From: Shigella phage ESh32 | Sequence record: ON528742 | Direction: 5' to 3' (one strand) | DNA: 64,000 nt | Shown: piece after piece, positions 10,103 to 14,769 of the stretch | How the letters are laid out: each line of letters begins with the position of its first letter | Numbering within the stretch: position 1 is the first letter of the stretch | Notes under the pieces: model-generated | Seen by the model: the letters and a program-made list of their open reading frames with translations, nothing else | What the model was told of the DNA's origin: nothing | Database searches by the model: none | Program-made: the position numbers and the translations under genes

Positions 10103-11530
10103 GTGGTAGAAATTATTCTTTCTCATCTCATATTTGATCAAGCTTATTTTTCAAAAGTTTGGCCATATATGGATTCAGAATATTTTGAAAGTGGTCCAGC
10201 TAAAAATACATTCAAATTAATTAAATCTCATGTTAATGAGTACCATAGCGTTCCATCTATTAATGCGTTAAATGTTGCATTAGAAAATAGTTCATTTACT
10301 GAAACAGAATATTCTGGTGTAAAAACACTTATTTCAAAACTAGTTGATTCTCCAGAAGATCACAGTTGGTTAGTAAAAGAAACTGAAAAATATGTTCAGC
10401 AACGAGCAATGTTTAATGCTACGTCTAAAATAATCGAAATTCAAACTAATGCTGAGCTTCCTCCGGAAAAACGAAATAAGAAAATGCCGGATGTTGGTGC
10501 TATTCCTGACATCATGCGTCAAGCATTATCAATTTCATTTGATAGCTACGTTGGTCATGATTGGATGGATGACTACGAAGCACGTTGGCTATCTTATATG
10601 AATAAAGCTCGTAAGGTTCCATTTAAACTCAGAATTCTAAACAAAATTACTAAAGGCGGAGCTGAGACTGGAACACTGAACGTTTTAATGGCTGGTGTTA
10701 ACGTTGGTAAATCATTAGGACTTTGTTCATTAGCAGCAGATTATTTGCAGCTTGGTCATAACGTTCTTTATATCTCCATGGAAATGGCAGAAGAAGTCTG
10801 TGCTAAGCGTATTGATGCTAATATGCTTGATGTTTCTCTTGATGACATTGATGATGGGCATATTTCTTACGCTGAGTATAAAGGAAAAATGGAAAAATGG
10901 CGTGAGAAATCTACTCTCGGTCGTTTAATCGTTAAACAATATCCTACTGGTGGAGCAGACGCTAATACATTCAGGTCTCTCTTGAATGAATTGAAGCTCA
11001 AAAAGAATTTTGTTCCAACAATCATTATTGTCGACTATCTAGGTATTTGTAAATCTTGCCGCATTAGAGTTTATTCAGAAAATAGTTACACAACTGTTAA
11101 AGCTATTGCAGAGGAATTACGTGCTCTGGCTGTTGAAACCGAAACCGTTCTTTGGACTGCAGCACAGGTTGGTAAACAAGCTTGGGACTCTTCCGATGTT
11201 AACATGAGCGATATTGCAGAATCTGCTGGTCTTCCAGCAACAGCTGATTTTATGCTTGCGGTCATTGAAACCGAGGAGCTAGCAGCTGCTGAACAACAAC
11301 TCATTAAGCAAATCAAATCACGATATGGCGATAAGAATAAGTGGAATAAGTTTTTGATGGGTGTTCAAAAAGGAAATCAGAAATGGGTAGAAATTGAACA
11401 AGATTCTACTCCAACCGAAGTGAACGAAGTAGCAGGTTCACAACAGATTCAGGCTGAGCAGAATCGCTATCAAAGAAATGAATCAGCTCGAGCTCAGTTA
11501 GATGCTTTGGCGAATGAATTAAAATTTTAG
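10103..11530 (+). CDS. 41: replicative DNA helicase gp41
   Basis: 475 aa, GTG start after AAGGAG; DnaB-like Walker A GVNVGKS. Confidence 0.95.
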   Translation: MVEIILSHLIFDQAYFSKVWPYMDSEYFESGPAKNTFKLIKSHVNEYHSVPSINALNVALENSSFTETEYSGVKTLISKLVDSPEDHSWLVKETEKYVQQRAMFNATSKIIEIQTNAELPPEKRNKKMPDVGAIPDIMRQALSISFDSYVGHDWMDDYEARWLSYMNKARKVPFKLRILNKITKGGAETGTLNVLMAGVNVGKSLGLCSLAADYLQLGHNVLYISMEMAEEVCAKRIDANMLDVSLDDIDDGHISYAEYKGKMEKWREKSTLGRLIVKQYPTGGADANTFRSLLNELKLKKNFVPTIIIVDYLGICKSCRIRVYSENSYTTVKAIAEELRALAVETETVLWTAAQVGKQAWDSSDVNMSDIAESAGLPATADFMLAVIETEELAAAEQQLIKQIKSRYGDKNKWNKFLMGVQKGNQKWVEIEQDSTPTEVNEVAGSQQIQAEQNRYQRNESARAQLDALANELKF

Positions 11531-11559
11531 TTTACAAGCTGACAAGACTATGGTATAGT
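11530..11559 (+). promoter_or_regulatory. early promoter (GTTTAC, 18 bp, TATAGT)
   Basis: consensus hexamers. Confidence 0.6.
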
Positions 11560-11587
11560 AGTCTTGTTGGTTAATGAGGAGATTGTT

Positions 11588-11770
11588 ATGGAATTGGTAA
11601 AGGTAGTTTTTATGGGGTGGTTTAAGAATGAAAGCATGTTTACTAAAGAAACCACAATGATGAAAGATGACGTTCAATGGGCTACTACTCAGTATGCTGA
11701 AGTTAATAAAGCATTAGTTAAAGCTTTCATTGATGACAAGAAAGTATGTGAAGTGGATTGCCGAGGATAA
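11588..11770 (+). CDS. dmd: Dmd antitoxin (inhibitor of RnlA/LsoA)
   Basis: 60 aa, position immediately after gene 41. Confidence 0.75.
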   Translation: MELVKVVFMGWFKNESMFTKETTMMKDDVQWATTQYAEVNKALVKAFIDDKKVCEVDCRG

Positions 11771-11771
11771 T

Positions 11772-12029
11772 ATGCATATTGTTTTATTTAAACCTACTCC
11801 GTATAACGTCAGGAAAAATACACAATTTAAGGCACTTATTGCGGATACGTGGGAATTGGTGTTAGATATTCCAGCAGAAGAAAGTCCTCCATTTGGTCGA
11901 GTGGAATTTATTAAGTTTGCTGTACGTCCTACGAAGCGACAGATTCGTCAATGCAAAAGATACTTTCGTAAAATCGTCAAGTTAGAGAAACAGTTTGTAA
12001 CATGTGATTATGCAGAAGTTTTAAAATAA
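11772..12029 (+). CDS. hypothetical basic protein (85 aa), 61.4-like position
   Basis: ATG overlapping dmd stop; SD GAGGA. Confidence 0.5.
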   Translation: MHIVLFKPTPYNVRKNTQFKALIADTWELVLDIPAEESPPFGRVEFIKFAVRPTKRQIRQCKRYFRKIVKLEKQFVTCDYAEVLK

Positions 12030-12031
12030 CT

Positions 12032-12061
12032 GTTTACTTTTGTTGGAAATTGAGATACTAT
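12032..12061 (+). promoter_or_regulatory. early promoter (GTTTAC, 18 bp, TACTAT)
   Basis: consensus hexamers. Confidence 0.6.
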
Positions 12062-12089
12062 ATAAACATAAACTACTGAGGAGATTATC

Positions 12090-12383
12090 ATGAAAAAATT
12101 TGTTTTTGCTGCAATTTTTGCTTTAGCTTCTTGTGCTGCTCAGCCTGCTATGGCAGGTTATGATAAAGATTTGTGTGAATGGTCTATGACTGCGGATCAG
12201 ACTGAAGTTGAAACTCAGATTGAAGCAGATATTATGAATATCGTTGAGCGTGATCGCCCTGAAATGAAAGCTGAAGTACAAAAACAGCTTAAGTCTGGTG
12301 GTGTAATGCAGTATAATTATGTTTTGTATTGCGATAAAAACTTTAATAACAAAAATATCGTAACTGAAATCACAGGTGAATAA
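12090..12383 (+). CDS. sp: Spackle (periplasmic inhibitor of gp5 lysozyme)
   Basis: 97 aa with signal peptide; synteny. Confidence 0.8.
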   Translation: MKKFVFAAIFALASCAAQPAMAGYDKDLCEWSMTADQTEVETQIEADIMNIVERDRPEMKAEVQKQLKSGGVMQYNYVLYCDKNFNNKNIVTEITGE

Positions 12384-12384
12384 T

Positions 12385-13017
12385 ATGATTTATTATATGC
12401 ACAAAAATCCACCGTTTAAATACGGTAAATTTCCTGATGCACAATGTTATAATATAACGCCTGATGAAAATAACCGTGGATATCTTATTGGCACAATTTT
12501 TGTAATTGTTAAAGATAACGAAATCGTTGCCTGGGCAGATTTTAAAGGTACAACACATGATGTTAATCCGGTGCCTTTCACATATTACAATATAATGGAT
12601 TTGGCATATGATTATAATTGGTTTAATCATGACACGTTGGCTCATATTGAAGGTGTAGGATTTGACATCTCTTATTCTAGCTACTCGTTGTGTCCTATGA
12701 GTCGGGCTCATAAAGAACCTGAATATTTTTCATTTAGGAAACGTGTAAACTTTAAACGCAACACAGAGTATGTCGGTGGAATCTTTGTTAAAGATAATCG
12801 AATTATTCGTATTAATTATCCTTTGAGCGTTAGTCAAAAAGATATTGATGTTGATTTAGATTTCACTGAAAATAATATTAATCATATTGCTTCTGTGTAT
12901 TTTGGTATCGATCACAAAATTGTAATATGTGGATATGAATTACCGTTTGAAGAACAGTCTAAAGTAAATGTTTCTATTGACGATCAAATTTTTAATGCTT
13001 TTATGAATAAAGGTTAA
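12385..13017 (+). CDS. hypothetical protein with two internal repeat units (210 aa)
   Basis: repeats of G-x-I-F-V-(V)-K-D-N; C-terminal tail IDDQIFNAFMNKG. Confidence 0.6.
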   Translation: MIYYMHKNPPFKYGKFPDAQCYNITPDENNRGYLIGTIFVIVKDNEIVAWADFKGTTHDVNPVPFTYYNIMDLAYDYNWFNHDTLAHIEGVGFDISYSSYSLCPMSRAHKEPEYFSFRKRVNFKRNTEYVGGIFVKDNRIIRINYPLSVSQKDIDVDLDFTENNINHIASVYFGIDHKIVICGYELPFEEQSKVNVSIDDQIFNAFMNKG

Positions 13018-13018
13018 T

Positions 13019-13375
13019 ATGTATAGTTCTGAATTTTCATATTTAAAAATGGAAAAAATTTCATACGATTTTATAGATGAAAAGGTTTATTATAGTTTCC
13101 ATGAACCACGTTTTAATAGTGAGGTTGGGTTTATTGTAGTAAAAGACAATTTCATTTTAAAGATATATTCGGCATTAAAGGATTTTCACTACGAAAATAT
13201 TAACCTAAAATTTGATAAAGAAAACGTTCGTAATTGTGCAGTAACAATTACAGGAAATAAAGGTACGTGTGTTATGTTATCTGATGAAATTAATGATTTG
13301 CTAAATGATGCCGAAAAGGTTGCTATTCCATCTATTGATGACCAAATTTTTAATGCTTTTATGAATAGAGGTTAA
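13019..13375 (+). CDS. hypothetical protein, single repeat unit (118 aa), paralog of preceding ORF
   Basis: same VKDN motif and near-identical C-terminal tail. Confidence 0.6.
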   Translation: MYSSEFSYLKMEKISYDFIDEKVYYSFHEPRFNSEVGFIVVKDNFILKIYSALKDFHYENINLKFDKENVRNCAVTITGNKGTCVMLSDEINDLLNDAEKVAIPSIDDQIFNAFMNRG

Positions 13376-13376
13376 T

Positions 13377-13541
13377 ATGAAAACATATAAAGAATTTATT
13401 AAAGAAGATATGGTAGCTGGAGATTCAGGTGGTAATCCTGAAAATATCTCTACTGGAACAACATCAGGTGCTGTAGTAAATAAAGGTCCTGAACAGATTC
13501 CTAAAAAGAAAAAAGAGGAATCTAAAGAAAAAGAAGAGTAA
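13377..13541 (+). CDS. hypothetical small Lys/Glu-rich protein (54 aa)
   Basis: ATG 2 nt after preceding stop. Confidence 0.4.
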   Translation: MKTYKEFIKEDMVAGDSGGNPENISTGTTSGAVVNKGPEQIPKKKKEESKEKEE

Positions 13542-13543
13542 AA

Positions 13544-14572
13544 ATGTCATCAATACCTTGGATTGATAATGAGTTTGCATATCGTGCATTAGCTCATTTA
13601 CCTAAATTCACACAAGTAAATAATAGTTCAACTTTTAAATTACGGTTTAGATGCCCTGTTTGTGGAGATTCAAAAACCGATCAGAATAAAGCTCGTGGAT
13701 GGTATTATGGTGATAATAATGAAGGAAATATTCATTGTTATAACTGTAACTATCATGCACCAATCGGAATATATTTAAAGGAGTTTGAACCCGATTTATA
13801 TCGTGAGTATATCTTTGAAATAAGAAAAGAAAAAGGTAAAAGTCGTCCAGTAGAAAAACCTAAAGAACTTCCTAAACAACCTGAGAAGAAAATAATTAAA
13901 TCTCTTCCGTCATGTGTTAGATTAGATAAACTGGCGGAAGACCATCCAATTATAAAATATGTAAAAGCTCGTTGTATTCCAAAGGATAAATGGAAATATC
14001 TTTGGTTTACAACCGAATGGCCTAAATTAGTTAATAGCATAGCACCGGGAACATACAAAAAGGAAATTTCTGAGCCTCGTCTTGTTATTCCAATTTATAA
14101 TGCTAACGGAAAAGCTGAGTCTTTTCAAGGACGTGCATTAAAGAAAGATGCTCCTCAAAAATATATCACCATTAAAGCTTATCCTGAGGCAACAAAAATT
14201 TACGGTGTTGAACGAGTTAAAGATGGTGATGTATATGTTCTAGAAGGACCTATAGATTCACTTTTTATTGAAAATGGTATAGCTATTACAGGTGGTCAAT
14301 TAGACCTAGAAGTTGTTCCATTTAAAGATAGACGAGTGTGGGTTTTAGATAATGAACCTCGTCACCCTGACACTATCAAACGAATGACTAAATTAGTTGA
14401 TGCAGGAGAAAGGGTTATGTTTTGGGATAAATCTCCCTGGAAATCAAAAGATGTCAATGATATGATTAGAAAGGAAGGTGCAACCCCTGAACAAATTATG
14501 GAATATATGAAAAATAATATTGCCCAGGGGTTAATGGCTAAAATGCGGTTATCTAAATATGCTAAGATTTAA
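13544..14572 (+). CDS. 61: DNA primase gp61
   Basis: 342 aa; zinc ribbon CPVC...CYNC; Toprim. Confidence 0.93.
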   Translation: MSSIPWIDNEFAYRALAHLPKFTQVNNSSTFKLRFRCPVCGDSKTDQNKARGWYYGDNNEGNIHCYNCNYHAPIGIYLKEFEPDLYREYIFEIRKEKGKSRPVEKPKELPKQPEKKIIKSLPSCVRLDKLAEDHPIIKYVKARCIPKDKWKYLWFTTEWPKLVNSIAPGTYKKEISEPRLVIPIYNANGKAESFQGRALKKDAPQKYITIKAYPEATKIYGVERVKDGDVYVLEGPIDSLFIENGIAITGGQLDLEVVPFKDRRVWVLDNEPRHPDTIKRMTKLVDAGERVMFWDKSPWKSKDVNDMIRKEGATPEQIMEYMKNNIAQGLMAKMRLSKYAKI

Positions 14573-14769
14573 ATCAACCCAACTAAAGCAAATGCTAAAT
14601 CTACAAATGTATCAAGAGTAACTACTGGAATATTAACACCATGCGCAATTGCAATTGGTGATAAAATAAAGTTCCAGAGTAAAATTCCTACCATAGCAGA
14701 AATAGTAAAAGCTATACGTTTCTTATTACCTTTTATGGCATTAACAAGTGCCATTAATTTTTGTACCAT
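14569..14769 (-). CDS. small two-TM membrane protein (66 aa) on late strand
   Basis: AGGAGG 4 nt upstream of ATG; AATAAATA late-promoter-like box upstream. Confidence 0.45.
   Translation of the reverse strand: MVQKLMALVNAIKGNKKRIAFTISAMVGILLWNFILSPIAIAHGVNIPVVTLDTFVDLAFALVGLI

Follow-up and report, generated by a model that had tools for sequence, protein, structure and literature searches.

Why should two neighbouring phage genes end in the same stretch of DNA, and could such a shared ending allow one of them to come or go without harm to the genes around it? The question is raised by a locus in Shigella phage ESh32 (sequence record ON528742), of which we analysed a stretch of 64,000 nucleotides (nt)—hereafter, the window. 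Here, two adjacent open reading frames (ORFs) on the plus strand, encoding proteins of 210 and 118 amino acids (aa) at positions 12385–13017 and 13019–13375, each finish within a copy of a 49-nt direct repeat (12973–13021 and 13331–13379). An initial annotation, made from the sequence alone, had drawn attention to this arrangement and had suggested that the repeats could drive the gain or loss of units by unequal recombination; the two ORFs and the repeat are real and lie at these coordinates.

The explanation that we favour, and to which we assign a probability of about 70%, is that the locus holds a two-gene array of the AdfA (Anti-DarT factor A) family, that the two proteins share a C-terminal tail and that the DNA encoding this tail acts as a portable junction. 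Few phage inhibitors of the DarTG defence have been characterised, and AdfA is among them.

The repeat and the gene ends

The two copies of the repeat, which stand 358 base pairs (bp) apart, are identical at 46 of 49 positions, one more than had been counted at first (four differences); the three mismatches are GAC/GAT, GAT/GAC and AAA/AGA. With up to three mismatches allowed, the 49-mer occurs twice in the window and not once in 100 shuffles. Phage RB18 has two copies of its own, identical at 48 of 49 positions. The repeat encodes the protein tail and also contains a GAGG ribosome-binding site and TAATATG, in which stop and start overlap; it matches the MotA middle promoter as well. Copy 1 reads, on the plus strand, through tail codons SIDDQIFNAFMNKG, stop and a single T to the ATG of the next gene, with the ribosome-binding site weakened to AAGG, and copy 2 through tail codons SIDDQIFNAFMNRG, stop and one T to the ATG of gene 61.1, with GAGG intact. 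Both proteins finish with SIDDQIFNAFMN(K/R)G, so that the common IDDQIFNAFMN(K/R)G ending described initially stands; the description of a stop codon followed by TAATATG does not, since TAATATG itself contains the stop: its TAA is followed by one T and then by the ATG with which the next gene starts.

An RNA element in the repeat was considered and rejected, given that no Rfam family matched at E-values up to 1 and that the two junctions fold no better than shuffled sequences (z = +1.9 and +0.2).

The gene ends of two-gene arrays follow a rule, seen in the window and in loci L021 (1395–1443), L016, L018, L019, L026 and L027: the first gene ends NKG (AAAGGT), NRD (AGAGAT) or KRD (CGAGAT), never RG, and the last or sole gene always ends RG, with GAGG intact 5 nt ahead of the next ATG. 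These first-gene endings imply at least three independent base changes, all of them in the short paralog's ribosome-binding site. Two readings offer themselves: the short gene is translated at a tuned-down rate, or the extreme C-terminus matters.

The longer gene is adfA

The 210-aa ORF matches the Pfam family AdfA (PF23813) across profile positions 1–211 with a score of 457 bits (E = 8.5e-138; gathering threshold 27 bits), and no residue of its product differs from the RB68/RB51 protein (100% identity). The ORF occupies the position of T4 gene 61.2, directly after sp and between genes 41 and 61, in the window and in each relative examined. This ORF is adfA, an already known gene encoding the full-length, two-unit member of the family, and the initial statement that function was unknown fails for it: AdfA binds and neutralises DarT1, a toxin that is a DNA ADP-ribosyltransferase (PMC11825919). 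RB69 AdfA gains this ability through the substitution R164H, which turns on DarT1 binding in a two-hybrid test, and T4 AdfA has His at that position and binds more weakly (PMC11825919). A check of the alignment column places the equivalent residue in the window at His167 (CAT, 12883–12885, plus strand), at the start of the unit 2 helix.

An AlphaFold2 model of AdfA (predicted local distance difference test score, pLDDT, 74; model mb35d1c88873c) shows a β5-α pattern at residues 2–76 and again at residues 100–173, and closes with a terminal helix at residues 198–207. Unit 1 (residues 1–76; 12385–12612, plus strand), delimited with AlphaFold2 and hhalign, holds GTIFVIVKDNEIVAW; unit 2 (residues 100–173; 12682–12903, plus strand), delimited with AlphaFold2 and by homology, holds GGIFVKDNRIIRINY and is homologous to the 118-aa paralog. 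Each is predicted to consist of five strands and a helix. When the N-terminal half was compared with the C-terminal half, BLASTP gave E = 0.11 and hhalign P = 8e-4 with a probability of 24%, the hhalign match being in register with the predicted secondary-structure elements. The initial reading of two units in this ORF is thus upheld by the pattern in the model but only weakly by self-comparison of the sequence; AdfA is likely to comprise two diverged β5-α units.

The 5′ end of adfA is deeply dimorphic. Across codons 1–58 (12385–12558) the N-termini of the window type and the T4 type share 42% identity and synonymous divergence (dS) is saturated (2.4); across codons 59–196, dS between the two types is 0.28. 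Each 5′ allele is found in about 230–250 records, and in phage G157lw a 5′ end of the window type is followed by a 3′ end of the T4 type.

The shorter gene as a probable free-standing second unit

The 118-aa ORF, a one-unit AdfA paralog of the RB32ORF033c type (phrog_4122), matches the Pfam AdfA profile with 34.1 bits (E = 2.3e-8) at positions 113–211 only, and its product aligns with AdfA residues 111–210 in BLASTP (E = 9e-11, 37% identity over 106 residues). The earlier proposal that adjacent paralogs share both a motif and a 3′ junction holds. In the RB51 annotation the short gene is labelled “similar to gp61.2”; PHROGs assigns the 210-aa and 118-aa proteins to separate function-unknown families (3781 and 4122, respectively). 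The AlphaFold2 model of the short protein has a mean pLDDT of 83, with the body above 90, and runs through five strands, a helix, a short strand, a second helix and a low-confidence linker to a terminal helix at residues 106–115, which is the conserved tail. The column equivalent to position 164 is occupied by Asn. The short gene is a free-standing copy of the second unit of AdfA.

With one unit and 56% of the length of AdfA, the 118-aa protein falls under the criterion of >75% of full length by which AdfA homologs were counted in PMC11825919; we therefore class it as an AdfA-family paralog and not as AdfA. T2 carries this paralog as its sole family member, and it is because of the same cut-off that T2 is stated to be without an adfA homolog (PMC11825919). 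The short gene has been passed over in the DarTG literature.

The gene is under purifying selection and is no decaying duplicate. The ratio of non-synonymous to synonymous divergence (dN/dS) is 0.17–0.31 in five comparisons, amino-acid identity to the RB18 protein is 100% at a dS of 0.11, and the frame reads through, at ≥80% coverage, in 335 of 336 records. Orthologs that are 45–50% identical occupy the equivalent locus in another genus. By homology with the AdfA unit that carries the specificity residue, the short protein would most likely bind and block a toxin.

A family confined to T-even phages, with one conserved tail

When 5.8 billion proteins were searched with a profile, T-even phage proteins alone were recovered, and an exhaustive profile search among 1.84 billion representatives gave ten matches, all T-even; no relative outside the T-even phages was found among these representatives or in NCBIfam, and no fold relative in the Protein Data Bank (PDB) or among viral models except the family itself. 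Three subfamilies, all confined to T-even phages, share the tail: AdfA (208–216 aa, two units), the 033c type (116–125 aa, one unit) and the Dhakavirus type (phrog_8539; 122–148 aa, one unit with a longer linker).

Between subfamilies the protein bodies are 20–35% identical in pairwise comparison. The tail comprises 14 residues, S-I-D-D-Q-I-F-N-A-F-M-N-K/R-G, and is predicted to form a detached, flexible C-terminal helix after the unit or units. Both window proteins conform to the C-terminal pattern of the family, S-[IV]-D-D-Q-I-F-N-A-F-M-[NK]-[KR]-[GDS]; QIFNAFM shows no variation among the 35 proteins aligned from the three subfamilies, and the pair of Asp residues ahead of it is conserved in at least 90% of members. 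The column of residue 164 holds H, N or R in AdfA, N, H or D in the 033c type and Q or E in the Dhakavirus type. IMG/VR genomes matched by a codon-blind DNA pattern for DDQIFNAFM have it once or twice, always at this locus, with paired copies about 355–361 bp apart.

From these alignments we infer that the tail helix may contact an invariant partner and that the globular units may set specificity. That the tail serves the whole family as a docking or inhibitory peptide, joining interchangeable toxin-binding units to one conserved partner, is a long shot, which we regard as very doubtful; were it true, the partner could be a pocket conserved among ADP-ribosyltransferase toxins or a component of the replication fork. 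QIFNAF may have some likeness to clamp-binding peptides, and it misfits their consensus at position 4; we treat this as a speculative lead.

Gene content varies at the repeat

The window belongs to a Tequatrovirus: its stretch 11500–13600 is 97.8% identical to RB51 and RB68 and is matched by 664 GenBank phage records. Gene content among relatives was counted with composite BLAST queries on the GenBank phage set (a survey of IMG/VR returned only 7 and 16 loci). Three states occur, namely sp-adfA-short-61.1 (window, RB51, Sf21, RB18 and Lutter), sp-adfA-61.1 (T4 and G157lw) and sp-short-61.1 (T2). A junction-spanning probe matched 685 records, of which 157 cover both genes, and DNA unique to the short gene is present in 298, which leaves about 141 with the short gene alone. 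The remaining records (~380), which include RB69-type and Dhakavirus phages, carry adfA without the short gene, or the tail only. Each of the two deeply diverged adfA 5′ alleles is accompanied by the short gene in some records (66 and 91) and not in others.

A precise one-gene difference recurs in Dhakavirus, where C6 and EcWhh-1 have a single gene after sp and where P896 and two metagenomic relatives, L018 and L019, have that gene followed by a 033c-type gene of 116–119 aa; one-gene and two-gene loci have an equal gene spacing of one base and a common downstream gene. Copy number at the locus does vary, then, and in every case compared the boundary of the extra gene falls exactly on the repeat. 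Whichever state a phage has, the gene before the junction still codes for the tail, and the one after it still comes with GAGG, TAATATG and the promoter match. The initial annotation had set against its own proposal a match to characterised proteins coupled with constant copy number: the 210-aa protein does have such a match, but copy number is not constant.

The junction of loci that have only the short gene (T2, locus L003, 2485–2500; and L011) reads sp-TAA-TTAGAGGTTAGTATG and keeps 13 of 14 nt of the 3′ end of the repeat, as if the body of adfA had been lost from a two-gene ancestor. A deletion at a TGAATA microhomology was tried as the origin of this T2-type junction and rejected, as it did not exactly reproduce the observed sequence.

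Conservation of the repeat DNA and the promoter match

The tail exists in 24 distinct DNA versions, in which Ser, Asp, Gln, Ala and Phe codons vary and the peptide is constant. Because the peptide has been kept despite these synonymous changes, selection on the protein is the main cause of the conservation of the repeat. The two adjacent genes are nevertheless far more alike inside the tail (39 of 42 nucleotides identical) than outside it (109 of 243 aligned), and the contrast extends to codon choice: at degenerate residues common to both, the paralogs agree in their codon in 10 of 12 cases within the tail (codon usage predicts 6.5; P = 0.033) and in 6 of 24 within the body (12.1 predicted; tail versus body, Fisher p = 0.0014). 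In Tequatrovirus there is an extra component at the level of DNA, which may arise from recombinational homogenisation, a DNA-level signal or both.

A candidate for such a signal is the predicted MotA-dependent middle promoter in each copy, at 12993–13020 (TAATGCTTTTA, 12 nt, TAATAT) and 13351–13378, both on the plus strand and both identified by pattern matching. We used the MotA box (a/t)(a/t)(a/t)TGCTT(t/c)A, a spacer of 11–13 nt and a TAnnnT −10 element, following the consensus quoted in PMC1524935. Both copies read TAATGCTTTT at the MotA box, with one mismatch at the last base, followed by a 12-nt spacer and TAATAT, which agrees with the −10 element. The record of phage Lutter (MT682714) labels both sites as promoters, with no evidence qualifier. 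The looser pattern TGCTT-N14-TANNNT occurs 17 times in the window against an expected 4.9 ± 2.3, with 13 of the 17 on the plus strand.

Such sites, for example those at 230, 6786, 17040, 50301, 51836 and 57708, offer a candidate map of middle promoters.

How genes may have been gained and lost

In the mechanism that we propose, the junction would be portable in the sense that recombination between two copies of the repeat would remove or add exactly one gene. Such an exchange would leave the tail of the upstream protein in place, and the gene downstream would lose neither its promoter match nor its ribosome-binding site nor its start codon. AdfA would be a small, non-enzymatic, DarT1-binding inhibitor built from two units, and the short gene its second unit set free, with a product that would block another toxin variant in the way that AdfA blocks DarT1. 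The repeat itself would be conserved mainly through its peptide, with the additional DNA-level component in Tequatrovirus. T4 recombines at homologies of 2–10 bp, and deletions and amplifications have been described at this very island (PMC9391042); a direct repeat identical at 46–48 of 49 positions and 358 bp apart is therefore a plausible substrate. Gain and loss driven by the repeat is plausible and fits the data, on circumstantial evidence.

Several observations weigh against parts of this account. Any insertion or deletion bounded by a repeat will align to that repeat whatever its origin. Among about 500 relatives there was none in which the 3′ body of a window-type adfA is joined directly to 61.1: an artificial query made of adfA 3′ body, repeat and 61.1 gave only two-piece (tandem) matches down to 97% identity. 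No array of more than two genes was found, and adfA of T4 and RB18 differ by a dS of 0.18. The promoter is a pattern match together with another annotator’s prediction, and in Dhakavirus and RB69-type copies its TGCTT box is broken (TGCCT, TGCAT) with the peptide unchanged. Where the proteins are concerned, the two units of AdfA are only marginally alike in sequence, the tail helix was modelled at low confidence (pLDDT 51–59), T2, which has the short gene only, owes its DarTG1 resistance to adfN (PMC11825919) and T4 without adfA has no phenotype (PMC11825919).

The lack of a fresh deletion or a longer array, together with the dS of 0.18, points to few and old events, and the states of the locus look like the outcome of a few such events, redistributed by ordinary homologous exchange. 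The single repeat copy of T4 has the single-nucleotide states of copy 2, but copy 1 of RB18 carries these states as well, so that deletion and insertion cannot be told apart from the T4 sequence.

The strongest competitor holds that the repeat is a by-product of selection on the C-terminal peptide and on the context of ribosome-binding site and start codon, and that it has played no role in gain or loss: illegitimate events would have happened once or twice and then spread by homologous exchange between co-infecting phages through the flanks (sp, mid-adfA and 61.1). We consider this rather unlikely. In its favour, the peptide is constant across genera while its D, Q, A, F and S codons vary, the flanks are 93–100% identical at the protein level, and whether the short gene is present shows no link to the adfA 5′ allele, as exchange within adfA predicts; the missing fresh deletion derivatives and three-gene arrays suit it too. 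It sits less well with the excess of shared codons in the Tequatrovirus tail over the gene bodies, with the near identity of the two RB18 copies, with the recurrence of a precise one-gene polymorphism in a second genus and with the far shorter homologies that suffice for T4 recombination (PMC9391042).

The codon excess could also be taken to mean that the repeat is mainly a regulatory cassette, a MotA middle promoter and ribosome-binding site travelling with the genes, whose DNA constrains the peptide. In favour of this count the match of both copies to the promoter consensus with a single mismatch, the surplus of the looser pattern, mostly on the early/middle strand, and the promoter annotations in MT682714. 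Yet the promoter match does not extend over SIDDQIF, the first half of the tail, which is equally conserved as protein, and the peptide has survived unchanged in those copies that have lost the TGCTT box; we hold this reading to be distinctly improbable. According to a third alternative, adfA was partly duplicated and the 118-aa ORF is the decaying product, with no function of its own. This draws on the ORF spanning only half of AdfA, on the existence of T4 without it and on the lack of a reported phenotype; it is close to refuted by the dN/dS values, the absence of any non-synonymous change against RB18, the almost universally intact frame, the diverged orthologs in another genus, the confident model of the body and the occurrence of the gene as sole family member in about 141 phages. 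The account of a two-gene AdfA array with a shared tail and a portable tail-coding junction remains the one that we prefer.

The surrounding island

Gene order around the array was derived from the RB51 annotation and from Pfam matches placed on the window; on the plus strand it runs 41, dmd, tifA, sp, adfA, short paralog, 61.1, 61. Gene 41 (10103–11530) is followed by dmd (61.5; 11588–11770; PF17587, E = 1.1e-44, and RB51 annotation), the first gene of the island, which encodes an antitoxin against RnlA/LsoA. Next come 61.4 (tifA family, DUF7279; 11772–12029; PF23945, E = 2.3e-20), to which the name tifA was given in PMC9391042, and sp (spackle; 12090–12383; PF25676, E = 1.3e-45), which lies directly upstream of the array in each relative examined. 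Downstream of the array in Tequatrovirus is 61.1 (13377–13541), and then the primase gene 61 (13544–14572). The initial annotation had placed the locus in an interval between 41 and 61 rich in anti-defence genes, and rightly so: the same interval has been named an anti-toxin–antitoxin island, with dmd, tifA/61.4 and adfA as its members (PMC9391042).

Two further observations concern this neighbourhood. In Dhakavirus relatives, a second DUF7279 (TifA-family) gene lies directly after the AdfA-like genes (3353–3574 in L018, 3362–3583 in L016 and 3353–3574 in L019), in addition to the one that follows dmd; anti-toxin–antitoxin genes have therefore been duplicated at the island in more than one family. 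On the minus strand of the window, a 66-aa ORF of the RB32ORF030w type (14569–14769), annotated elsewhere as a predicted membrane protein, overlaps the end of gene 61 by 4 nt and is antisense to the entire early gene cluster.

Significance and comparison with known systems

What is new here is modest and comprises the shared tail, the modular units, the portable junction and the absence of RG endings from the first genes of arrays. In the predicted architecture of AdfA one unit occurs twice; one-unit relatives exist as free-standing genes, including in T2; the published specificity residue falls in the unit common to all members, at a column that varies across the family; and the 14-residue tail has remained nearly unchanged while the rest has diverged. 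The junction offers a clean natural example of a boundary that tolerates gain or loss of a whole gene with its neighbours undisturbed. On the very doubtful docking-peptide reading, the 49-nt element, with a promoter match, ribosome-binding site and start of its own, would be an adaptor through which a lytic phage plugs inhibitor units in and out without an integrase, and the AdfA family would be a small library of toxin-inhibitor cassettes in which the short paralogs neutralise other toxins.

The 210-aa protein resembles published AdfA (LeRoux et al., 2022; PMC11825919) in length, in its position after sp and in the His at position 164; the 118-aa protein resembles it in the tail and in an above-threshold Pfam match over the C-terminal half, but is without unit 1 and has Asn at the equivalent of position 164. 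AdfB of Vibrio phage ICP1 is likewise small, has no enzymatic domain and neutralises DarT by interaction, and its allelic variants differ in the DarT that they block (PMC11481870); no sequence relationship to the AdfA family was found, the exhaustive profile search having given T-even proteins only. Dmd and TifA (PMC9391042; PMC10853763) lie in one operon with the AdfA genes, have the early/middle context of expression in common with them and follow the same general logic, that of a small protein inhibiting a toxin directly, but have unrelated folds and targets and do not share the C-terminal tail. Duplication at this locus in Dhakavirus is a feature of TifA-family (DUF7279) genes too.

A parallel of another kind is found in the mobile promoter cassettes that Arbiol, Comeau and Krisch reportedly described in 2010 from hyperplastic regions of T4-type genomes. 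These are likewise said to be short DNA elements that bear expression signals and lie at the boundaries of gain and loss, but to be intergenic and to consist of an early promoter and a stem-loop; the repeat described here, with no significant RNA structure, lies within coding sequence, encodes a peptide and belongs to one family at one locus.

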